From: Candidatus Hermodarchaeota archaeon
Lineage (GTDB): Archaea; Asgardarchaeota; Lokiarchaeia; Sigyniarchaeales; SOKP01
Direction of reading: 5' to 3'
Assembly (NCBI GenBank): GCA_048885925.1
Contig: JBHLLG010000010.1
Coordinates: forward strand, 831-64,830
DNA length: 64,000 bases
A program made the position numbers and the translations under genes. The notes beneath the pieces were generated by a model. It did no database searches, had not been told where the DNA came from, and saw nothing but the letters and a program-made list of their open reading frames with translations. Shown in pieces: positions 5,703 to 32,339 of this stretch. Position 1 is the first letter of the stretch. Every line of letters starts with the position of its first letter.

Positions 5703-6569
5703 ATGGAAGTATTTTTTCGAGAATTAACACTTGAAGACATTCCAGCTATTAAGGATATTAGTAAAGATATTTGGGAGGGAGATGATTATATTCCTTATAT
5801 TATTCAAGAGTGGCTTCAAGAGAAGAACTGTATGAATTATGGAACTTTTAAAGACAAAGCTAAAACAGAATTAATAGGATTTGGAAGAGTGAAGTTCTAT
5901 GATAAAGAGATAGCATGGTTAGAAGGAGGAAGAATAAAAGTTACATTTCAAGGTCAAGGAATTGGAAAATTACAGCTTAAATATGCTATTGATTATGCTC
6001 GTAAAATTGGCGCTAAAGTTGCTCAATATGATACTTCATCTGAAAATCTTGCGTCAATTGCGCTGGCAAAATATTTTGGCTTCACTCAGAAAAAGAGTAT
6101 GGATCTTGTTCTTTTGAAATCTGAAAATGTTAAAACTCTTCAGAAAGTCCCTCAGAAATTTGAAGAACTTAAAGCGAATGATGTAAGAGAGATCTATAAA
6201 AATTTTGATAGTGGTCCTGGAGATGAAATTTGCATTGGTTGGTCATTTATTCCATTGAAATTTATAACTGATAAACATGGATCATGGATATATAATAAAG
6301 GTGCAATTTTACAAAAAATAAAACCTGGAAACTCTCAAAATTATGAGCTTCCGTTAGAACAAGAAATTTGGATGATTGTTTATGGAATGCCAAGCGCTGT
6401 GCGAGAACTAGTTGAATACACTATCCAAAACGAGCTCGAAACTAAAAAATCTATAATTTTTGAGGTTTTTTGCAAACCTAATGTAGTAAATCTCATAAAA
6501 GAAATTGGATTTAAATATCCTAAAGATAAACCATTTAGTGTTATTTTATTTGAGAAAAATCTTAACTAA
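5703..6569 (+). CDS. GNAT-family N-acetyltransferase with C-terminal extension
   Basis: Acetyl-CoA-binding motif VTFQGQGIGKLQLKYAIDYARKIGA (Q/RxxGxG/A) in the N-terminal ~130 aa. The C-terminal half is unassigned. Confidence 0.7.
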   Translation: MEVFFRELTLEDIPAIKDISKDIWEGDDYIPYIIQEWLQEKNCMNYGTFKDKAKTELIGFGRVKFYDKEIAWLEGGRIKVTFQGQGIGKLQLKYAIDYARKIGAKVAQYDTSSENLASIALAKYFGFTQKKSMDLVLLKSENVKTLQKVPQKFEELKANDVREIYKNFDSGPGDEICIGWSFIPLKFITDKHGSWIYNKGAILQKIKPGNSQNYELPLEQEIWMIVYGMPSAVRELVEYTIQNELETKKSIIFEVFCKPNVVNLIKEIGFKYPKDKPFSVILFEKNLN

Positions 6570-22897: not shown

Positions 22898-23335
22898 ATG
22901 TATTGTCCTAAATGTGGTTCAAAAGTAGCTGATGAGGCAAAATTTTGCACTTTTTGTGGAGAACCCATTGAAGGTGAACGTATTCCTGAAAGTCAACCTA
23001 TCCAACCAACCCCATCAACACCACCATCCTATCAGGATTCATTACCAACTCCAGTGAAAAAATCGACAACTAGTGGCGGTATTGCACTTGGTATTATAAT
23101 TGCCTTAATAGTGGGTGGGGTTTTAATATATTTTGGATTTAGATCACTAGTTGGAGGCTATGCCTATACCACGGGATTAACCATGTTAATTATTGGTATT
23201 ATTTTTATGAGTTTCATATGTTGTTTTTGTAGTGGTTGTAGTAGTGGAAGACGTCGCGGAGGTTATTACGGTGGTGGTTGTGACTGTAGCGGTTGCGATT
23301 GTGGTGATTGCGACTGCGGAGGGTGTGATTGTTAG
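22898..23335 (+). CDS. zinc-ribbon membrane protein with C-terminal (x-G-C-D-C)4 Cys/Asp repeat
   Basis: N-terminal MYCPKCGSKVADEAKFCTFCGEPI, a Pro-rich linker, two TM segments, then the tail CCFCSGCSSGRRRGGYYGGGCDCSGCDCGDCDCGGCDC. Confidence 0.65.
   Translation: MYCPKCGSKVADEAKFCTFCGEPIEGERIPESQPIQPTPSTPPSYQDSLPTPVKKSTTSGGIALGIIIALIVGGVLIYFGFRSLVGGYAYTTGLTMLIIGIIFMSFICCFCSGCSSGRRRGGYYGGGCDCSGCDCGDCDCGGCDC
23272..23332 (+). repeat. four tandem 15-nt units encoding xGCDC
   Basis: ggt tgt gac tgt agc / ggt tgc gat tgt ggt / gat tgc gac tgc gga / ggg tgt gat tgt. Confidence 0.7.
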
Positions 23336-23428: not shown

Positions 23429-23902
23429 ATGCAGCAACAGGAACAAAATCGTCATAATAATAAAAAAAAAATAATTCATTGGTTGGCTCATCATAATCCA
23501 AACCGAGAAGATTTCAATAATCATGTAATTTATATTTTTAGCTATGCAATTTGTATAGGATGTTCTGCTTTTATTTTGGGTGCGGGTGTTGCTTTAATAA
23601 TTGGTAATATATTTTATGATTATATTAGTAATTTCATCAGCTTTCCTATTATTTTCTTAACTTTTTTAATTTGCTGGCTCCCCTCAATTTTCCAATATTC
23701 AATTCAAGCTATAAAAAGGAAACCACTTACCAATCGATTTTTAAAATTTCTTATTCGCTTTCTTTATCCATTAGGTAGTATCATACTCATATTTAATTCG
23801 CCACTATGGGGATTTATTATTGCAATTCCAGCAGGTTTATTAATAATAGTTATAAGAAAGATATTTTATAAAAAAAAGGAACTCAAGAGTAAAAAGATTT
23901 AG
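23429..23902 (+). CDS. polytopic membrane protein (DUF2085-like?)
   Basis: Four predicted TM helices. YAICIGCSAFILG resembles the CxxC-G motif of DUF2085 membrane proteins, but this is a weak assignment. Confidence 0.5.
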   Translation: MQQQEQNRHNNKKKIIHWLAHHNPNREDFNNHVIYIFSYAICIGCSAFILGAGVALIIGNIFYDYISNFISFPIIFLTFLICWLPSIFQYSIQAIKRKPLTNRFLKFLIRFLYPLGSIILIFNSPLWGFIIAIPAGLLIIVIRKIFYKKKELKSKKI

Positions 23903-24627
23903 CTTTTATTATGCTTTTTCAATTGTTTTTTTAACCTCTTGAGAAGTTCATCGGTAGTGAGAGTATTTGTAAAGAATAGTTCCATACCTCTTAGGGCAGC
24001 ATTATGTATAGTTGGAGACCATGCTGCACATGCATCATCAATCACATAAACGTTAAATCCTAAATCAAATGCGGTTCTTGCTGTATTTTCAACACATATA
24101 TTCGTAACTACTCCTACAATTATTACTGTATTAATTCCTAAATTTCTTAATTGATGCTCAAGATCTGTTGAACTAAATGTTCCATTAGTTGTTTTAAGTA
24201 TAACTATATCTTCTGTTTCTGGTTTTAATTCAGGGATAATTTCTGAAGTAATTTCTTGGATAGATGGGAATATGTATTTTCCAAACATATTTTCGAAGAT
24301 TTCATTATATGTACGCACATTATTTGCATAATCATTACGATCTTTTCTACGAGAAGCAAATCTGGTATAATATATAGGGATTTTATTTTCTCTAAAGAAT
24401 TTTAACAATAGCTTAATATTTGGAATCACTACTTCATCAACTTGTTTTATAAAATATTGAATTAAACCAGGAATTGATTTTTCAAAGGATTCTACCATAG
24501 CAGAGGTTCTCTTTACTTGATAATCTTGCATATCAATAATTAAAAGAGCGCTTTCACGAGGAATAATTGGCGGGGCAAATCCTCTTTTAAGTTTTAAATA
24601 TTGATCAATTTTTTCTTCTATATCCAA
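23899..24627 (-). CDS. isochorismatase-family cysteine hydrolase
   Basis: ALLIIDMQ (Asp) and VIIVGVVTNICVENTARTAFDLGFNVYVIDDACAA (catalytic Cys context). Confidence 0.85.
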   Translation of the reverse strand: MDIEEKIDQYLKLKRGFAPPIIPRESALLIIDMQDYQVKRTSAMVESFEKSIPGLIQYFIKQVDEVVIPNIKLLLKFFRENKIPIYYTRFASRRKDRNDYANNVRTYNEIFENMFGKYIFPSIQEITSEIIPELKPETEDIVILKTTNGTFSSTDLEHQLRNLGINTVIIVGVVTNICVENTARTAFDLGFNVYVIDDACAAWSPTIHNAALRGMELFFTNTLTTDELLKRLKKQLKKHNKS

Positions 24628-24946
24628 TTTATATCACATGTAATTTTTATAAATAATATTCATCGTAAAACAATTTAATAATTCTTATTATATCAAATTT
24701 CAATAGGATAAATTTTCAGAAAAAGTTGAGACACATTATACTAACTCAAAGCTGATTCTTTTAGTTATGAATAAAATGAAAAGTTAGAAAAGAAATATTT
24801 TTAAAGATTTTGTTAGAAATTTGATTAATTAGAAGAAGTTGTAAGATTATAAAATATGGCTTTTATAATAAAATTAAGAACTATCTTTTCTTTTAATAAC
24901 ATATTAGTTAACATTTAAATTTTATAATGGAAAGAGGATTATTGTC

Positions 24947-27925
24947 ATGGGTAAGGAACAGAAAAAATTGGCTAATATTTTTAGATTACTCAAAAAGATG
25001 ATTGAAGAAAATGAAGATTATAAAAGAGAAATCTATAATGAAGGCACAGGGATGAACTTTAATTCAAGAATTCTGTTTACAATTGAAGGAAATGAAACTG
25101 ATTATGTTGCCATTATTTTTAAGGATGGTAATATTGAGATTTTTGAAGAAAAGATTGAAGACCCATCAGTTAAATTCATATTCAAAACGGCCAGAGGTTT
25201 AGGAAAATTAAGCCGAGCATCTTCCCAAGAAATTGTCTATTCTCTTTTAAATAATAAAATCCAATATATTGGAAGCTTAAGTGATGTAACTAAATTTTTC
25301 TTTCTATTAAGTTATATACTCCTTAAACAAAAGGATGATTTTGATAAAAGGCAGGCTGAGAGAAAAAAACCAGAACTTTTACCGTTTGAGGATTTTACAG
25401 ATTGGGATAGCGCTACAAAACAAATGACACACAAATACTTAGGCTACAAGGTTGATAATGTAAAATATTTAGATGATCCCTATTTGAGCAAATACAACCT
25501 AAAAGACTTTAAGCGATTAAATTATCTGAAATATTGTCGTTTCAACACCCAAGTAGAAGTATGTCCTGAACGAGCTAAGCTTATCACAGAATTTGCTAGA
25601 AAAGAGGGTTACACACCTGAAGATGGCAATAAAGATCATCCCGAATTAAAAATGGGAAAAATAATTAATTATATTCTTTCCAATAAGGAAGCTTCCATCC
25701 AAGATTGGGATTATTTACCGGGTATTTCGACATCAAAACAGAGAGGAGCGTTAATTTACCCAGAATTTGGAGCAATAATTTTCTGGCCTGAACTATATTC
25801 AGCAGATTCCAGAGAACTTTATCCGCAATTAATTACACAAGAGACTATCGATATTCTTAATACAGAAGTCTTCCCATATTGGGCTGACCGTTGTTTAAGA
25901 GAATACACAAGGCAAATGACTGGAAATCAGCTTTCCCAACAATTAGACGAACTTTTTGTTTTTTATTTTATGTGGAAGACACAGGCTATTTCACACACAA
26001 TTCCTGGCTTTGAGACTTTCTTTAAAAGAGGTCTTGACGATCTTATTCAGGAAGCTAAGAAAAAAGAAGAAGAGATTAGCGAACAAGCTAAAAAGGATTT
26101 TTATAAAGGAATTCAATTAGCTTGTCAAGGTGTATTAACTTATGCTAAAAATTTAGCAAATGTAGTTGAACAAAAAGCAGCCGAAATAGTTGAAAGTAAT
26201 GCATCAGAGCAATCAATAAAAAGAAAAAGTGAATTAAAAAACATATCACACATTTTACATAATATTCCTGCGAAACCACCTGAAACACTTGAAGAGGCGA
26301 TAATTTCGCTTTGGATTATGTGGATAGCATTAACTATGGAAAACGCTCATATGGGATTATCGCTTGGTAGATTAGATAAGTTACTACAACCATTTTTCAT
26401 TTCAGATATGGAAAAAATCGAATCTGAAGAGGAGAAAGAAGAATATATAAAAAAAGCAGTTGAATTGATAGGGAGCTTTTTTCTACGGTGTTCAGACCAA
26501 GAACCCTTACTACCAGATATAGGAAATTATTTGTTTGGAGGTAGTGGTCAAGATTTTGCTATTACAGTTGGAGGTGTAGATTCAGAAGGAGCTTCGGCAG
26601 TTTGTGATATGACTTTCATCATTCTTAAGGCTGCAGAAATGCTCTCCATTCGTGATCCTAATCTAAACGCGAGATATTATCCTGGAATAAATTCAAAAGA
26701 ATATTTAGATAGATTATTAGAGGTGAATATAAATACACATGCTACTCCAAGTATTCACAATGATATCCAGATGATTAAAGCACTTACAAAAGTTGGATTT
26801 AAATTAGAAGATGCGAGAGGATGGGCTGCTACTGGATGTGTTGAACCGACTATATGTGGAAAACACTTCGGTCATACAAATAGTATGATGTTCAATGCTG
26901 TTGCTGCTATGGAAATGGCATTAAATAATGGATATCATCCTGTTGTAAGCATGAAGCGAAGAATTGGTCCTGAGACAGGAGATGTTGCTCAATTCCAAAA
27001 CTTTGATGCATTTTTAAATGCATATAAGGAGCAACTTCACTTTTTAGTTGAAAACAGTGTAGAATGTAATAATAATCTCGGTAAAGCGCACCAACTCTTA
27101 CATCCGTCACCTTTGCTAAGTTCTTTATTTGAGGGTCCTATGAAAAAGGGAAATGATTTAGTAAACGGTGGAGCAATTTATAATACTTCTGGAGTTGCTG
27201 TGATAGGCATCGCGGATATAATTGATTCTTTAAAAGTAGTTAAAACTCTTGTATACGATAAAAAAGAAATTGATTTTATAACTTTAAATGAGCATGTTAA
27301 AAATGATTTTTCTACTCCTGAAGGAGAATTATTGCTAAAAAGAATAAAATTAATCAAAAAATTTGGTACAGGTGATAAAGAAACGATCGAAATCGGTCAA
27401 AATGTAATAGATTTTCTTTACAATGACTTTTATTCACACAAGAATTATCGCGGGGGTCGTTATTTAACAGGATTTTGGAGTATGAGCAACCATGTGGCTT
27501 TTGGCACACTCTCAGGAGCTTTACCGAATGGTCGAAAAGCTAATAAACCGTTCACTCCCGGGTTAACCCCAACACCAGGAGGAAAAGATTTACTAATTCA
27601 AAATATACAATCTGTTGCAGCATTAGACACAGATAAAATGCCAAACAATCTAGCCTTTAATATTAAATTAATACCAAATGCAAATGATTTACATGAAGAA
27701 ACATTAAATCATTTTAATGGATATACCTCGAGTTATTTTGATTTAGGTGGAATGCAGATTCAATTTAATGTAGTGAGTACAGATACTTTAAAAGATGCTA
27801 TGGAACATCCCGAGAATTATGGTTGGTTAATTGTACGAATTTCAGGATATAATGCTTATTTCACGCAATTAAATAAGTACTTACAATTAGAGTTAATTGA
27901 ACGGCAAGAATTCGCAACTCATTAA
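24947..27925 (+). CDS. glycyl-radical enzyme (PFL2/glycerol-dehydratase-like eliminase class) with N-terminal SCP2-like extension
   Basis: Gly-radical fingerprint VRISGYNAYF near the C-terminus. Thiyl loop ATGCVEP, with Glu two residues after the Cys. The usual GRE N-terminus (CPERAKLITEF) begins only around residue 200. Residues ~35-130 show an SCP2-like pattern. Confidence 0.9.
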   Translation: MGKEQKKLANIFRLLKKMIEENEDYKREIYNEGTGMNFNSRILFTIEGNETDYVAIIFKDGNIEIFEEKIEDPSVKFIFKTARGLGKLSRASSQEIVYSLLNNKIQYIGSLSDVTKFFFLLSYILLKQKDDFDKRQAERKKPELLPFEDFTDWDSATKQMTHKYLGYKVDNVKYLDDPYLSKYNLKDFKRLNYLKYCRFNTQVEVCPERAKLITEFARKEGYTPEDGNKDHPELKMGKIINYILSNKEASIQDWDYLPGISTSKQRGALIYPEFGAIIFWPELYSADSRELYPQLITQETIDILNTEVFPYWADRCLREYTRQMTGNQLSQQLDELFVFYFMWKTQAISHTIPGFETFFKRGLDDLIQEAKKKEEEISEQAKKDFYKGIQLACQGVLTYAKNLANVVEQKAAEIVESNASEQSIKRKSELKNISHILHNIPAKPPETLEEAIISLWIMWIALTMENAHMGLSLGRLDKLLQPFFISDMEKIESEEEKEEYIKKAVELIGSFFLRCSDQEPLLPDIGNYLFGGSGQDFAITVGGVDSEGASAVCDMTFIILKAAEMLSIRDPNLNARYYPGINSKEYLDRLLEVNINTHATPSIHNDIQMIKALTKVGFKLEDARGWAATGCVEPTICGKHFGHTNSMMFNAVAAMEMALNNGYHPVVSMKRRIGPETGDVAQFQNFDAFLNAYKEQLHFLVENSVECNNNLGKAHQLLHPSPLLSSLFEGPMKKGNDLVNGGAIYNTSGVAVIGIADIIDSLKVVKTLVYDKKEIDFITLNEHVKNDFSTPEGELLLKRIKLIKKFGTGDKETIEIGQNVIDFLYNDFYSHKNYRGGRYLTGFWSMSNHVAFGTLSGALPNGRKANKPFTPGLTPTPGGKDLLIQNIQSVAALDTDKMPNNLAFNIKLIPNANDLHEETLNHFNGYTSSYFDLGGMQIQFNVVSTDTLKDAMEHPENYGWLIVRISGYNAYFTQLNKYLQLELIERQEFATH

Positions 27926-27959
27926 ATTTCCCTTTAAAATTAATATTACTCGAATTAAT

Positions 27960-28853
27960 ATGGAAACTTTAATTGTAAATGTTAAAAGAAATTCATTGGA
28001 TGATGGTCCTGGCATTCGAACTGTAATTTTCTTTAAAGGTTGTCCACTTTCTTGCATTTGGTGCCAAAACCCAGAAACTAAATCACCATCTCAAGAAATT
28101 TCATTTGATAAGGAAAATTGTATTGAATGTAAAAAATGTTTTGAAGTTTGTAGTAATAACGCAATTAGTTTCTTGTATAAATATCGTATAAATAGGAATA
28201 AATGTAATTTATGCGGTAATTGCATTGAAGTCTGTCAAAATGAGGCGCTAAAATTTGCTGGTAAAAAGTACGATATAGAAACACTCTATAAAAAAATAAT
28301 TCGAGATAAACCTTTTTATGATAATTCGGGAGGTGGTGTCACTTTTTCAGGAGGTGAGCCTACTTTTCACATAGAATACTTGAATAAACTATTAAAAAAA
28401 CTTAAGAAAGACAATATACATATTTGCCTTGAAACTTGCGGTTATTATAATCGTGAAAATTTCAATAACTTAATCTTACCTTATTTGGATTTAATATATT
28501 TTGATTTAAAGGTTTTCGATCCAAAGATACATATAAAATATTGTAGTGTTTCTAATGAGAGAATATTCCAAAATTTTGAAGAATTAATTAAAAAGAATCA
28601 AGTTGAGGTTTTACCACGAATTTCATTGATACCAAAAATTACAGCAACTAAAAACAACCTATTGAAATTAGCTAATTATTTAAAAGGCAAGAATATAAAG
28701 AAAATTAGTCTTTTACCTTACAATCCTTTATGGATTTCTAAATCTGAGACCATTGGAAAAAAGGCAAAATATACACGCTCAAATTGGCTCAATCAAAAAG
28801 AAAAGATAGTTGTTAAGAAAATTTTTTCTAATTTTAAATTTCGAGAATTCTGA
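27960..28853 (+). CDS. glycyl-radical enzyme activating protein (radical SAM)
   Basis: GPGIRTVIFFKGCPLSCIWCQNPE (CxxxCxxC), two ferredoxin-type clusters (CIECKKCFEVC, CNLCGNCIEVC) and GGVTFSGGEP. The track start at TTG 27897 overlaps the GRE; the ATG at 27960 (METLIVNVKR) is preferred. Confidence 0.9.
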   Translation: METLIVNVKRNSLDDGPGIRTVIFFKGCPLSCIWCQNPETKSPSQEISFDKENCIECKKCFEVCSNNAISFLYKYRINRNKCNLCGNCIEVCQNEALKFAGKKYDIETLYKKIIRDKPFYDNSGGGVTFSGGEPTFHIEYLNKLLKKLKKDNIHICLETCGYYNRENFNNLILPYLDLIYFDLKVFDPKIHIKYCSVSNERIFQNFEELIKKNQVEVLPRISLIPKITATKNNLLKLANYLKGKNIKKISLLPYNPLWISKSETIGKKAKYTRSNWLNQKEKIVVKKIFSNFKFREF

Positions 28854-29004
28854 ATTCCAGTTTGAAAAATCACATATAAAGTAGAACTATGAGTGTGTCT
28901 TACACTTGAATTCATTGATTTTGCTTTCACATTATATGCTAATAGCATTCTATTAATAAAAAAAGTAATCTGTCTATGATTCTAATATAATAAAGAGTGG
29001 AAAT
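28818..29004. repeat. direct repeat copy 1 (last 11 codons of the activase gene plus downstream intergenic region)
   Basis: Aligns by eye at roughly 85% identity with 29784..29994. Example blocks: aaaattttttct..aaatttcgagaattct, tatgagtgtgtcttaca and ttctaatataataaagagtggaaat. Confidence 0.8.
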
Positions 29005-29047
29005 TCAAAATGGAATTAACAAAAAAAAAAATTGAATGGTAGTTAAT

Positions 29048-29605
29048 TCACTTAAATTTTATGTATTTATGTCCTTTATCTTCAAGAATTTTTAATAATA
29101 AATCTCTAAATACTGATTCTACATTCTGTCCTGTTTTTGATGAACATTCAATATATTTATGGAATTTATATGATCTCATCATGTCTACCACGTCATCTTT
29201 TTTACAAACCCTTTGTTGTTCAAGATCTAGTTTACCACCAACCATTATCAGAGGTATATATCTAACTGTCTTACCAAATTCTGGAAGCCATTCATTTAAA
29301 GCAATTAAACTTTCATAATTAGTAAGATCAAACATAAAAATTCCTCCAGATGAACCTCGAGCATAACTTGATATCAGGAATTTAAACCTCGTCTGACCAC
29401 CAAAATCCCATATTTGAAGTGTTATTGTTCCATTCTCTATCTCTAAGTATTTAACATGTATTGATGCCCCAAGAGTCGATTGTATATTTTCATGAAATAG
29501 ATTTGTCATATAACGATCTACCAATGTTGTCTTTCCAACAGCTTTATCCCCGAAAATACAAATCTTGTATGCAAATTCTAGCTCATTTTGTCTATTTCCT
29601 TCCAT
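29048..29605 (-). CDS. Ras/Rab-like small GTPase
   Basis: G1 GDKAVGKT, G3 WDFGGQ, G4 GGKLD (NKxD variant), G5 ECSSKTGQNV. 185 aa with no C-terminal Cys (ends KYIKFK). Confidence 0.85.
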   Translation of the reverse strand: MEGNRQNELEFAYKICIFGDKAVGKTTLVDRYMTNLFHENIQSTLGASIHVKYLEIENGTITLQIWDFGGQTRFKFLISSYARGSSGGIFMFDLTNYESLIALNEWLPEFGKTVRYIPLIMVGGKLDLEQQRVCKKDDVVDMMRSYKFHKYIECSSKTGQNVESVFRDLLLKILEDKGHKYIKFK

Positions 29606-29783
29606 TTTTAAACAAATTTCATTTTATTTATGAATATTAATGTATTAGATCTATAATATAGGTTATACTTTTGTGTCTTAAATATTTTAATAAATAACAT
29701 TCTATTTAAATTCAATTAGCTCAATTTTTTTTGAAAATAGATATATGACTTCATTTACAACTCATATTTTAATATAATATTAA

Positions 29784-29994
29784 AAAATTTTTTCTGGTTA
29801 TAAATTTCGAGAATTCTAATTCCAGCCTGAAAAATCTAATATATAATAGAATTATGAGTGTGTCTTACATTAGAATTTATCAAATTTGCTTCCATATTAT
29901 ATGCAAATAGCTAGATATATAAAGAAAAATTACACATTCTATTATAAAAAAAAGTAATCTGTTTATAATTCTAATATAATAAAGAGTGGAAATA
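29784..29994. repeat. direct repeat copy 2 (retains a degenerate activase 3'-end remnant KIFSGYKFREF*)
   Basis: Same blocks as copy 1, plus a 24-nt insertion (tagatatataaagaaaaattacac). The remnant reading frame ends in TAA where copy 1 has TGA. Confidence 0.8.
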
Positions 29995-30033
29995 AATATA
30001 TCTAAAAAAAAATAGACATAAGAGAGGAGTAGA

Positions 30034-30834
30034 ATGGGGGATCGTCTGAAGGATAAGATAGCTATAGTTATTGGAGCAGGACAGCAACCGGGAGATACAA
30101 TAGGTAATGGAAGAGCAATTTCAATTCTTTTTGCTCGTGAGGGTGCCAAAGTAATGCTTGTTGACCAGGATCTTAATTCTGCTCAAGAAACAAAATTGAT
30201 GATTGATAAGGAAGGTAATGAATCATTCACATTCAAAGCCAATATTGTAAAAGAGGATGATTGTCGGCAAATAGCTGAGAAATGTGTTGAGTTATATGGT
30301 CGAATTGACATTCTTGTCAATAACGTTGGTATTGGAGAGGGAGATAACAAATTGGTAAAATTAAGCGAAGACATATGGGATAAAATTTTTAATACAAACC
30401 TAAAAGGAATGTTTTTCACTTGTAAGTATGTATTACCTATAATGGAGAAACAAGAAAGCGGTTCTATTATCAATATATCTTCTATCGCAGCTATTTGTGC
30501 CACATCTCTAGCAGCTTATAAAATATCAAAATCAGGAGTTAATTCTTTAACTCATCAACTAGCCATGAAATATGCTAAGAAAGGAATCCGTATTAATGCC
30601 ATCATGCCTGGATACTTAAATACACCCATGGCCATTGAAGGACTTTCAAGAGCGAGAGGGATAAGTAAAGAAGATTTAATCAAATATAGAAATAATATGG
30701 TCCCACTAAAAGGGGGAATGGGAGATGCTTGGGACACTGCTTATGCCGCTCTTTTCTTGGCTTCTGATGAGGCAAAATTTATCACTTCAATTGTACTCCC
30801 AGTTGACGGCGGTCAAAGCTCAAGAATAGGATAA
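30034..30834 (+). CDS. SDR-family oxidoreductase (classical short-chain dehydrogenase/reductase)
   Basis: Cofactor motif VIGAGQQPGDTIGNGRA, NNVG, and catalytic S...YKISK (YxxxK). GGAG lies 5 nt upstream of the ATG. Confidence 0.9.
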   Translation: MGDRLKDKIAIVIGAGQQPGDTIGNGRAISILFAREGAKVMLVDQDLNSAQETKLMIDKEGNESFTFKANIVKEDDCRQIAEKCVELYGRIDILVNNVGIGEGDNKLVKLSEDIWDKIFNTNLKGMFFTCKYVLPIMEKQESGSIINISSIAAICATSLAAYKISKSGVNSLTHQLAMKYAKKGIRINAIMPGYLNTPMAIEGLSRARGISKEDLIKYRNNMVPLKGGMGDAWDTAYAALFLASDEAKFITSIVLPVDGGQSSRIG

Positions 30835-30894
30835 TATAAAGGAAAGTAATGTATTACTGTTATTTTTTAAAAATAATTATAGTAATCAAATTAA

Positions 30895-30899
30895 GGTGA
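30895..30899 (+). promoter_or_regulatory. Shine-Dalgarno-like GGTGA 7 nt upstream of in-frame ATT 30907 (putative true start of the CMD gene)
   Basis: The in-frame stop at 30892-30894 is immediately followed by GGTGA aaaaaca ATT. The conserved N-terminal CMD motif lies between this ATT and the first ATG. Confidence 0.4.
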
Positions 30900-31041
30900 A
30901 AAAACAATTACTAAAAAAGCAGAAGAATTCCCTAAACAAAGAGAAAGTATTGATCGAGAAAGGGTAAGGCTTACAAAACCTAGAGTTTACCCATTAAACG
31001 AATCTGAATGGGATGAAGAGGTTAAATCCATCTTAGAACCA

Positions 31042-31524
31042 ATGATAGATGAAGAAAGTGGTCGTGTGATAAATATTTTTAAAACTCTAGCTAGACATGA
31101 AAAGTTACTCAAACGGTGGCTTGTATTTGCTAGACATGTTTTGTTTAAATCTTCTCTCCCTACAAGGGAAAGAGAGATCCTCATACTTCGAATTGGTTGG
31201 CTTTGCAAGTCAGAGTATGAATGGGGTCAACATGTCAAGATCGGAAAAGAAAGTGGGCTTACTGATGATGAAATTAAAGGAATCATAAAGGGTCCAGACT
31301 CAAAAGGATGGGATAGATTTGATGCAACTCTATTAAGAGCTGTTGATGAGCTTTATTATGATTCTTTTATTAGCGATCCAACTTGGAAGACACTTTCCGA
31401 GAGGTATAATACACAGCAACTTTTAGATTTGATTTTTACTGTTGGTCAGTATAATCTAGTAAGTATGACACTAAATACTCTAGGTGTTCAATTGGAAGAG
31501 GGCACTAAAGGTTTTCCTAAGTAA
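31042..31524 (+). CDS. carboxymuconolactone decarboxylase (AhpD-like) family protein; real start probably upstream (ATT 30907)
   Basis: NIFKTLARHEKLLKRW...SEYEWGQHVKIG family pattern. The in-frame upstream sequence RLTKPRVYPLNESEWDEEVKSILEP matches the usual N-terminal R(I/V)xPLxxxEWDxE segment but contains no ATG/GTG/TTG. Confidence 0.8.
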   Translation: MIDEESGRVINIFKTLARHEKLLKRWLVFARHVLFKSSLPTREREILILRIGWLCKSEYEWGQHVKIGKESGLTDDEIKGIIKGPDSKGWDRFDATLLRAVDELYYDSFISDPTWKTLSERYNTQQLLDLIFTVGQYNLVSMTLNTLGVQLEEGTKGFPK

Positions 31525-31596
31525 AAAAAATATTTATGAGTTATAAATATAATAAAAAAAAAGAAATATTGAGATTTTTTGTTGAAATAAACTACA

Positions 31597-31806
31597 TTAG
31601 AAATATTTTATTGCTAAAAGGATGTCGTCCTTTGTAACTTTCTTTCTCTTGGCATGCTTTGTGAGAGCTAAGGCAGTTTTTGTTATCTTTTCAGCAGATT
31701 GACCCATCCAATCTACTAATTCATCAACTGCGTCTCGAGCGACGATAATGGCACCATTGTGCTTCATTAACCTTCGAATAGGACTCCAACTAATATATTC
31801 GGACAT
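31597..31806 (-). CDS. archaeal histone (HMf family, histone fold)
   Basis: 69 aa: MSEYISWSPIRRLMKHNGAIIVARDAVDELVDWMGQSAEKITKTALALTKHAKRKKVTKDDILLAIKYF. The track start at GTG 31821 itself contains the GGAGG SD for the ATG at 31806. Confidence 0.9.
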   Translation of the reverse strand: MSEYISWSPIRRLMKHNGAIIVARDAVDELVDWMGQSAEKITKTALALTKHAKRKKVTKDDILLAIKYF

Positions 31807-32339
31807 TTTATATTCCTCCACTTTTTAATTGTTTGTTATTATTTTTATTGAAATTTATTATTAATTAAGAGTTAGTTATATAGATATTAATCTTTTACAT
31901 ATTTAAAGATTTTTATTCTTGCTTAATTTTATGGAGAATAAATTGAAAAAAATTGAACGACAAAATTCGAAATCGCAGAAATGATCAATTTCGTGCAACT
32001 TTAACTAATATATTTCTTTTTACGGAATTTGCTATTCTATTAAAGTTTGGGATTTTTTTTATTGTATTTGCTTAAACTTTTTACTATTTAATGATGAAGG
32101 GCAATAATGAAAGAGAAAAAAGAAAAATAATCAAATTCTGACACGTTGGATCGTTGAAATTTTTAAAATTTTAATTGTCGCTTTCTTACATAATTGTGAG
32201 TGTTAGAAGAATTGACGTTAGGATCCTTGGCGAATTCGCTCATTGGGAATAAAAATGATGATACAATATAGCTCAAATTAAAATATTTAATAAACAAAAT
32301 AGATTACAAATCAGATAATATTATTTTAATTATAAAATA

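Follow-up and report, generated by a model that had tools for sequence, protein, structure and literature searches.

Glycyl radical enzymes (GREs), which are sensitive to oxygen, catalyse demanding reactions under anaerobic conditions, and the study of further clades has time and again brought new chemistry to light (choline, hydroxyproline, sulfonates). A 64,000-nucleotide stretch of contig JBHLLG010000010.1 from a lokiarchaeal genome, that of a Candidatus Hermodarchaeota archaeon (hereafter the window), contains a gene for a GRE with an unusually long N-terminus, followed by a gene for its activating enzyme (activase). An earlier note on this DNA, made from the letters alone, read the N-terminal extension as an SCP2-like (sterol carrier protein 2) domain and the remainder as an eliminase-type GRE, and proposed a hydrophobic or lipid-derived substrate. 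The question raised by this locus is whether the extension does possess an SCP2 fold and belongs to the enzyme and, if so, what chemistry the combination might support. Direct reading of the GRE open reading frame (ORF) and of the activase gene located every sequence feature upon which the note relied; a 992-codon ORF with the Pfam scores given below, in DNA of ca. 29% G+C within an AT-rich window, is not a chance feature.

N-terminal SCP2-fold domain

The AF2 model of residues 1-200 (predicted local distance difference test score, pLDDT, 88) exhibits an SCP2-like order of helices and five strands, and a Foldseek search of the Protein Data Bank (PDB) with the N-domain model returned SCP2-fold proteins as each of its top 45 matches (45/45). 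The best of these was UbiJ-SCP2 (6h6p; E=3.7e-6, TM-score normalised to the target, TMt, 0.74); others include Archaeoglobus AF1534, the insect, yeast and human SCP2 proteins, the SCP2L domain of MFE-2 and the C-terminal domain of alkylsulfatase. Sequence comparisons across the family lead to the same fold: the four best PDB matches of a profile built from 41 N-termini are all sterol carrier protein 2 (E=0.007-0.02), 14 of 41 diverse family N-termini match Pfam SCP2 (PF02036) when scanned singly (best E=6e-8), two of the 41 match the SCP2-like family Alkyl_sulf_C, and two homologues carry a precomputed SCP2 domain annotation. Against this stands the sequence of the window protein, residues 1-200 of which did not match SCP2 when compared with Pfam and NCBIfam, giving only sub-threshold matches to DUF7884 (E=0.0034) and Csx26. 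The Pfam comparison by which the earlier note had proposed to check its assignment thus succeeds for some of the homologous N-termini and fails for the window sequence, and assignment of the SCP2 fold draws on family members, the family profile and the predicted fold, rather than on a Pfam match of the window's own. Taken together, the model, its structural matches and the family profile bear out the SCP2 fold that the note had proposed from a stretch corresponding to residues 42-117.

The full-length AF2 model is likewise of high quality (pLDDT 90; predicted TM-score, pTM, 0.91), with pLDDT values of ca. 82-94 in the N-domain and the weakest N-terminal part (ca. 68) at residues ca. 150-160. 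The pTM of the full chain is only suggestive of a fixed position for the N-domain in the model. None of the solved GREs among the structural matches of the full-length model covers the N-domain (TM-score normalised to the query, TMq, 0.74-0.75).

Translation from an internal methionine (Met160, in the sequence MTHKYLG), which the note had named as a possible objection, is rejected in view of purifying selection on the N-domain and of its conservation across the family. Comparison with the closest relative, a 'Candidatus Lokiarchaeia archaeon' metagenome-assembled genome (MAG; GCA_044240345.1, hereafter L001) that encodes a 91% identical GRE, gave ratios of non-synonymous to synonymous substitution rates (dN/dS) of 0.10 in the N-domain (residues 1-135), 0.13 in the linker and 0.07 in the core, and the N-domain is present in all 112 of the full-length homologues aligned. 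The earliest in-frame start downstream of a stop codon is the ATG at 24947, the homologues start at the same place, and the TATA-like TTTATAAT and the GAGG motif that precede it are both kept in L001. We conclude that residues 1-135 form an SCP2-fold domain that is conserved, under purifying selection and joined to the catalytic core by a variable linker.

Catalytic core, activase and candidate reaction

The remainder of the protein matches both Pfam models against which the note had suggested that it be compared, i.e. PFL-like (PF02901; residues 196-853, E=2e-142) and Gly_radical (PF01228; residues 870-973, E=7e-24), with the sequence CPERAKLITEF at residues 206-216. Within the Cys loop, G630-C631-V632-E633-P634 is invariant in 112/112 homologues and aligns with the GCVEP of CutC, such that Cys631 corresponds to Cys489 and Glu633 to Glu491. 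Over the same 112 homologues, the glycyl radical motif VRISGYNAYF is invariant at V963, R964, S966, G967, Y968, Y971 and F972, and nearly so at I965, N969 and A970. Set against the GRE fingerprint RVxG[FWY]x6-8[FL]x4Qx2[IV]x2R (PMC13450708), the window sequence reads R964-I-S-G967-Y...L975...Q980..L983..R986, i.e. with two conservative deviations (V to I, and I/V to L).

Residue equivalences to CutC were obtained from a HMMER alignment, using an offset derived from the GCVEP and D216 landmarks. His350 aligns with CutC Asp216, and with the 'ISH' histidine of Archaeoglobus PFL2; it is probably the counterpart of His164 of glycerol dehydratase, judged by position rather than by a direct alignment. 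Amongst residues near the Cys loop, H640 and H643-T644 are invariant and D536 is nearly so (106 of the 112 homologues). CutC Thr334 is replaced by Met469 (Ala in most family members), Phe395 by Asp536 and Tyr506 by Met648, with Thr502 retained as Thr644; the active-site positions M469, M647 and M648, polar in CutC, are Met, Ala or Leu in the family, which may be read as weak evidence for a hydrophobic substrate. In glycerol dehydratase itself, the C1 hydroxyl loses its proton to Glu435, whilst the leaving C2 hydroxyl receives one from His164 (PMC13450708).

Core residues ca. 188-989 are roughly equidistant from five solved GREs, namely CutC, propanediol dehydratase, A. fulgidus PFL2, glycerol dehydratase and HypD (318-324 bits, 26-29% identity, TMt 0.91-0.94), and lie much farther from benzylsuccinate and methylalkylsuccinate synthases, HPAD and PFL. 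The GRE reaches none of the NCBIfam equivalogs, scoring 387 for HypD (cutoff 1100), 377 for CutC (1050), 336 for HpfG (1000) and 316 for HpsG (1000), and is also below the cutoff of the broad PFL2-3 subfamily TIGR01774 (478 vs 678 bits). At the level of sequence, the core is a divergent member of the Cys-x-Glu (CXE) branch of GREs, which comprises 1,2-eliminases and isomerases. The alignment, together with the location of His164 at the CutC Asp216 position, suggests an eliminase-like enzyme, most probably of the dehydratase type. The Cys-x-Glu loop described in the earlier note stands, whilst the label 'eliminase' is likely but goes beyond what that loop can prove, since the CXE motif is retained by 1,2-eliminases and GRE isomerases alike (PMC13450708) and is accordingly necessary, and not sufficient, for a 1,2-eliminase.

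The same motif would suit an isomerase resembling HplG, YbiW or PflD, in which Cys-x-Glu opens or rearranges a hydroxylated substrate with no net loss of a leaving group, and the SCP2 domain binds the apolar part. PflD of E. coli and of Streptococcus, together with HplG, match the core at 254-301 bits and YbiW at 224, all four with TMt 0.90-0.94. Nevertheless CutC, the propanediol and glycerol dehydratases and HypD score higher (318-324 vs 224-301 bits), the invariant His350 lies at the position of the dehydratases' acid catalyst, and, in one cultured species, the gene directly downstream encodes an aldehyde oxidoreductase, which suggests that the product is an aldehyde. We regard an isomerase as distinctly improbable.

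A further alternative is an alkyl- or arylalkylsuccinate synthase, which would add a hydrocarbon to fumarate. Members of the family come from Smithella, Desulfatibacillaceae and Desulfobacteraceae, which are noted for degrading hydrocarbons anaerobically, and an SCP2 module that binds the alkane would make sense in such an enzyme. Hermodarchaeota and other Asgard PFL-like GREs have also been annotated as Ass/Bss homologues (PMC8163825). However, BSS and MasD score only 149 and 190 bits (TMt 0.79-0.83), against ca. 320 bits and 0.91-0.94 for the eliminases; invariant Glu633 and His350 constitute an eliminase/isomerase signature; no genes for HiPIP-like or rubredoxin-like small subunits adjoin the GRE, either in the window or in those relatives that were examined; and the activase falls below the BssD equivalog cutoff (199 vs 496). 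Similarity scores, motif pattern and lack of Fe-S small subunits thus all disfavour this possibility, which we hold to be very remote.

The activase bears out its description in the note as a CxxxCxxC protein with two ferredoxin-type clusters, CIECKKCFEVC and CNLCGNCIEVC. It matches Pfam Radical_SAM, Fer4_12 and two copies of Fer4, and scores 284 bits (cutoff 174) against NCBIfam TIGR02494 (glycyl-radical enzyme activating protein, PFLE_PFLC). Its sequence identifies it as the type of activase that installs the glycyl radical, predicted here to reside on Gly967. The mechanically called ORF (27897-28853) begins with TTG and overlaps the end of the GRE gene by 29 nt; as a 297-aa product follows the GRE in L001 and in two other relatives (L004, L092), the real start is likely to be the downstream ATG listed in Table 1.

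The reading that we prefer, and to which we give about an even chance, is that the GRE and its activase carry out a 1,2-elimination by radical chemistry, with the SCP2 module holding an amphipathic substrate. In this mechanism the Cys631 thiyl radical would abstract a hydrogen next to a substrate hydroxyl, Glu633 would deprotonate that hydroxyl, and His350 would aid exit of the neighbouring leaving group, most likely OH (i.e. a dehydration), yielding an aldehyde or ketone. The SCP2 module would grip the hydrophobic tail and feed the polar head into the buried active site; candidate substrates might be vicinal diols with a long chain, glycerols bearing an alkyl or acyl group, or other alcohols of this kind derived from lipids. 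A comparable task falls to the SCP2 domains that are fused to alkylsulfatases or to enzymes of peroxisomal beta-oxidation. The substrate of the window enzyme is probably hydrophobic, and that it is a lipid is an inference. On a bolder and unlikely version of this proposal, the SCP2-GRE, fused or split, would be the first lipid-acting GRE, an oxygen-independent radical dehydratase or C-O lyase working on the glycerol or diol head of ether lipids, monoalkyl- or monoacyl-glycerols or long-chain diols. Were that so, sediment anaerobes, Asgard archaea included, could break down or remodel otherwise recalcitrant membrane lipids, and the SCP2 module would represent a new class of GRE substrate-delivery subunit.

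Several observations weigh against 1,2-elimination on a lipid-like substrate, in addition to the missing Pfam match of the window's own N-terminus. SCP2 folds are not always lipid carriers. The presence of D536, H640 and H643 by the Cys loop means that the pocket is not purely hydrophobic, there is no conserved neighbour beyond the activase and a TetR regulator, leaving pathway context thin, and the lipid-related genes found near some family members could be coincidental. The CXE motif is, in addition, retained by GRE isomerases (PMC13450708).

Fused and split relatives

Full-length homologues with 42-91% identity are found in Lokiarchaeia/Promethearchaeota, Hodarchaeota and Sigynarchaeota and, amongst bacteria, in Acididesulfobacillus acetoxydans, Dehalococcoidia, Spirochaetota, Deltaproteobacteria, Bacillota and Actinomycetota. 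GTDB species genomes were additionally scanned with a C-terminal alignment around ISGYNAYF, which gave at least 80 loci, with no archaeal ones among those listed; about half of these 80 were ordinary PFLs that matched the second pattern, and only loci with the family motif were kept. Among the matches listed are Smithella, Smithellaceae, Desulfatibacillaceae, Desulfobacteraceae, Bacteriovoracaceae, Leptospirales, Binatia, Myxococcota, Vicinamibacteraceae, Anoxymicrobiaceae and Oscillospiraceae, together with Desulfoluna butyratoxydans MSL71 and the completely sequenced D. limicola ASN36, and all 32 listed loci that have an intact ORF with the ISGYNAYF motif carry the N-domain. In a crude neighbour-joining tree, calculated without support values, all Asgard sequences form one clade nested among the bacterial ones. 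The archaeal setting that the earlier note had singled out is therefore no peculiarity, the same architecture being widespread in bacteria. On sequence grounds SCP2-GRE is a coherent family of ca. 990-aa proteins in Asgard archaea and many anaerobic bacteria, for which databases give no annotation beyond 'pyruvate formate lyase family protein' or 'formate acetyltransferase'.

Two further observations concern individual members. A lokiarchaeal JGI contig (L092, 6791-18141) encodes two tandem SCP2-GRE paralogues, both of 991 aa, that share 58% and 70% identity with the window protein. After them come a single activase gene and the genes for a third GRE of 875 aa without an SCP2 domain (31% identity) and an MFS transporter; the three GREs apparently share the one activase. 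At three bacterial MAG loci (L031, L040, L044) the fused gene is split into at least two ORFs with the N-domain in a separate frame, and these broken genes are either frameshift pseudogenes or assembly errors.

A search of 1.84 billion representative proteins with the N-terminal profile gave 556 matches, which include, besides fragments of the fusion, stand-alone proteins of ca. 140-175 aa that match the SCP2 part only. Each of the three stand-alone genes that could be placed on contigs (all metagenomic: L091, L089 and L090) lies directly after a GRE gene. In L091 (2440-6315) the order is GRE (800 aa), SCP2-like protein (173 aa) and activase (299 aa); in L089 the stand-alone protein is encoded between a GRE C-terminus and an activase N-terminus; and in L090 the SCP2-like gene follows a GRE C-terminus, with the contig ending just past it, so that an activase follows in two of the three. 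The split forms make up a sister clade of the fused family, and their stand-alone proteins (166-173 aa) possess an extra N-terminal helix region of ca. 40 residues. The L091 GRE is 40% identical to window residues 175-989, retains ISHT and GCVEPT..G..FGHT, and is the closest relative outside the fused family, any characterised GRE being only ca. 28% identical. The junction between fused and split forms coincides exactly with the variable linker. As the same two parts occur either fused or as adjacent genes, they probably work together, and the sequences argue for a functional partnership of the SCP2 part and the GRE.

Partnership could also mean a structural or regulatory role, in which the SCP2 module stabilises the large subunit, as the beta/gamma/delta small subunits of benzylsuccinate and methylalkylsuccinate synthases do, or gates the glycyl radical domain and substrate channel, and the substrate could be small and polar. 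Known GRE accessory subunits do serve solubility, channel gating and control of radical installation (PMC13450708), and the module resembles known small subunits in being either fused or a small gene between GRE and activase; the neighbourhood lacks a consistent lipid pathway, and the polar pocket residues H350, D536, H640, H643 and T644 are kept. On the other hand, the known small subunits are all Fe-S (HiPIP-like) or rubredoxin-like proteins (PMC13450708), the Cys ligands and fold of which are absent from the module, and its 45 top structural matches are all SCP2-fold binders of lipids or hydrophobic ligands or the substrate-recruiting domain of alkylsulfatases. Moreover, the enzymes that have known accessory subunits all act on hydrophobic substrates, and a gating function would be compatible with such a substrate. 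We accordingly judge a solely accessory role to be rather unlikely, and retain 1,2-elimination on an amphipathic substrate as our preferred reading.

With the 1,2-eliminases amongst GREs (B12-independent glycerol and 1,2-propanediol dehydratases, CutC, which is a choline TMA-lyase, and HypD, a hydroxyproline dehydratase) the window enzyme has in common the barrel, the GCVEP loop, the C-terminal glycyl radical domain, His at the dehydratase acid-catalyst position and an adjacent activase with two extra ferredoxin-type clusters. It differs from them in overall sequence (26-29% identity), in the substrate-contact positions M469, D536, T644 and M648, in its RISGYNAYF motif and in having no microcompartment association, and from all solved or reviewed GREs in its 170-residue N-terminal SCP2 domain and linker. 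A. fulgidus PFL2 (2f3o), the only structurally characterised archaeal PFL-like GRE, shares the fold, the 'ISH' motif and the Cys-x-Glu loop, but comprises 776 aa without an SCP2 domain, is 26% identical and belongs to a different clade; its function is unknown or debated (PMC13450708).

The SCP2 modules of the alkylsulfatases SdsA1 and Pisa1, of MFE-2 and of UbiJ-SCP2 have the same alpha/beta fold as the window domain (Foldseek E 4e-6 to 3e-3), which differs from them in sequence (9-17% identity), in its N-terminal position and in having a GRE as partner. In those systems the modules bind or recruit the hydrophobic substrate. The small subunits of other GREs (HPAD gamma, BSS beta/gamma and MASS beta/gamma/delta) are encoded by small operon genes, as is the SCP2-like protein of the split clade; unlike these HiPIP-like [4Fe-4S] or rubredoxin-like proteins (PMC13450708), the latter has no Cys motifs for binding metal, and the GRE with which it is paired is of the Cys-x-Glu type, not a decarboxylase or an X-succinate synthase. 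A 2026 review of GREs describes small subunits for HPAD, BSS and MASS only, lists every characterised PFL-like GRE as bacterial, and makes no mention of a sterol-carrier or fused domain (PMC13450708). Literature searches on GREs or formate lyases with SCP2 or sterol carrier domains, and on Asgard or Lokiarchaeota GREs, found no description of this architecture, in line with the earlier note's suggestion of a possibly uncharacterised GRE chemistry.

A large uncharacterised clade that always has an SCP2-fold partner, whether fused or as an operon gene, points to a new mode of substrate presentation in GREs. Asgard archaea commonly possess members of this clade, in some cases as tandem paralogues, as do anaerobes of sediments and the subsurface; the cultured hosts Desulfoluna butyratoxydans, D. 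limicola and Acididesulfobacillus acetoxydans make the hypothesis directly testable.

Gene neighbourhood and features of the locus

Over 29 family loci, the only recurrent neighbours are the activase at position +1 and an upstream TetR regulator; the latter occurs in 12 of the 29, all bacterial, immediately upstream in ten and one gene further in two. When Pfam families were counted among 130 neighbouring ORFs from 21 bacterial loci, the outcome agreed with this, AOR, SDR and NAD-epimerase being present in two loci each. In Acididesulfobacillus the activase gene is followed after 13 nt by one for an aldehyde:ferredoxin oxidoreductase, which is also encoded nearby in two other loci; an AMP-ligase is encoded near three loci, and SDR and NAD-epimerase-type reductases near a few; these neighbours offer weak evidence for what may be an aldehyde-type product. 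Lipid-related neighbours comprise, besides the L004 genes described below, a GDSL lipase (L005), a DAG-kinase-like protein with a patatin (L006) and an acyl-CoA dehydrogenase (L007), and such sporadic lipid genes, along with TetR, are weak evidence for a hydrophobic substrate.

Within the window, the note had taken an SDR and a CMD/AhpD-like gene to be, apparently, the original downstream neighbours of the GRE; the idea that they are its natural partners is not supported. The syntenic order in L001 is helicase, metallo-beta-lactamase, two small membrane proteins, GRE, activase, histone, DUF3795 and peptidase M28, i.e. the histone gene directly follows the activase with no SDR or CMD gene between. 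The corresponding interval in the window (28860-31596, vs 13911-14093 in L001) holds ca. 2.7 kb of extra DNA, and its GTPase, SDR and CMD genes (28.9-31.5 kb) are without counterpart in L001. The sole match to the window SDR is a 33% identical, unrelated SDR in L004, and no SDR orthologue lies beside other family members. We therefore reject SDR and CMD as functional partners. An association with MFS transporters (L001, L004, L005, L092) was likewise discarded: the window has none, and those of the four loci are mutually 23-27% identical or undetectably related.

Table 1. Features of the SCP2-GRE locus and its surroundings (window positions)
Feature	Position	Strand	Remarks
Candidate expression signals: TATA-like TTTATAAT; GAGG, Shine-Dalgarno-like	24921-24928; 24934-24937	+	Consensus resemblance only; just 5' of the ATG
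GRE ORF	24947-27925	+	992 aa, glycyl radical enzyme
N-terminal SCP2-fold domain, residues 1-135	24947-25351	+	Predicted fold, family N-termini, profile
Charged variable linker, residues 136-170, including Met160	25352-25456	+	Length and sequence vary across the family
GRE catalytic core, residues 171-992	25457-27925	+	Ten-stranded barrel and glycyl radical domain
Ser349-His350-Thr351	25991-25999	+	No variation in 112/112 homologues
Cys loop TGCVEP, residues 629-634	26831-26848	+	Thiyl-radical Cys631 and Glu633
Glycyl radical motif VRISGYNAYF, residues 963-972	27833-27862	+	Radical site Gly967
GRE activating enzyme, radical SAM, 297 aa	27960-28853	+	Likely true start ATG 27960
CPLSCIWC of activase	28041-28064	+	Two ferredoxin-type 4Cys clusters come after it
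Ras/Rab-like small GTPase gene	29048-29605	-	Pfam Ras E=2e-39
SDR gene	30034-30834		Within the window's extra DNA
CMD/AhpD-like gene	31042-31524		Within the window's extra DNA
Histone gene	31597-31821	-	Flanks the extra ca. 2.7 kb

The GTPase gene is bracketed by a direct repeat of ca. 190-210 nt (28816-29004 and 29782-29993; 77-93% identity in pieces). Copy 1 includes the last ca. 38 nt of the activase gene and the downstream spacer, and copy 2 carries a relic of the activase 3' end directly upstream of the SDR gene; the repeat looks like the product of an insertion or duplication that placed the GTPase between activase and SDR.

In the Promethearchaeota MAG locus L004, two stand-alone SCP2 proteins of 144 aa are encoded upstream of the SCP2-GRE (1418-1852 and 5728-6162). 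The Pfam models SCP2 and Alkyl_sulf_C match each of the two, as does, weakly, the profile of the GRE N-domain (E ca. 1e-4), and their genes adjoin those of a PapA-type condensation enzyme and a PEMT-like methyltransferase.

Upstream of the GRE in the window lies an isochorismatase-family gene (23899-24627, minus strand) that is missing from L001. The small protein encoded at 22898-23335 combines a zinc-ribbon at its N-terminus (CPKCG...CTFCG) with two predicted membrane helices and a tail strikingly rich in Cys, Gly and Asp, CDCSGCDCGDCDCGGCDC; L001 has a homologue in the equivalent position.

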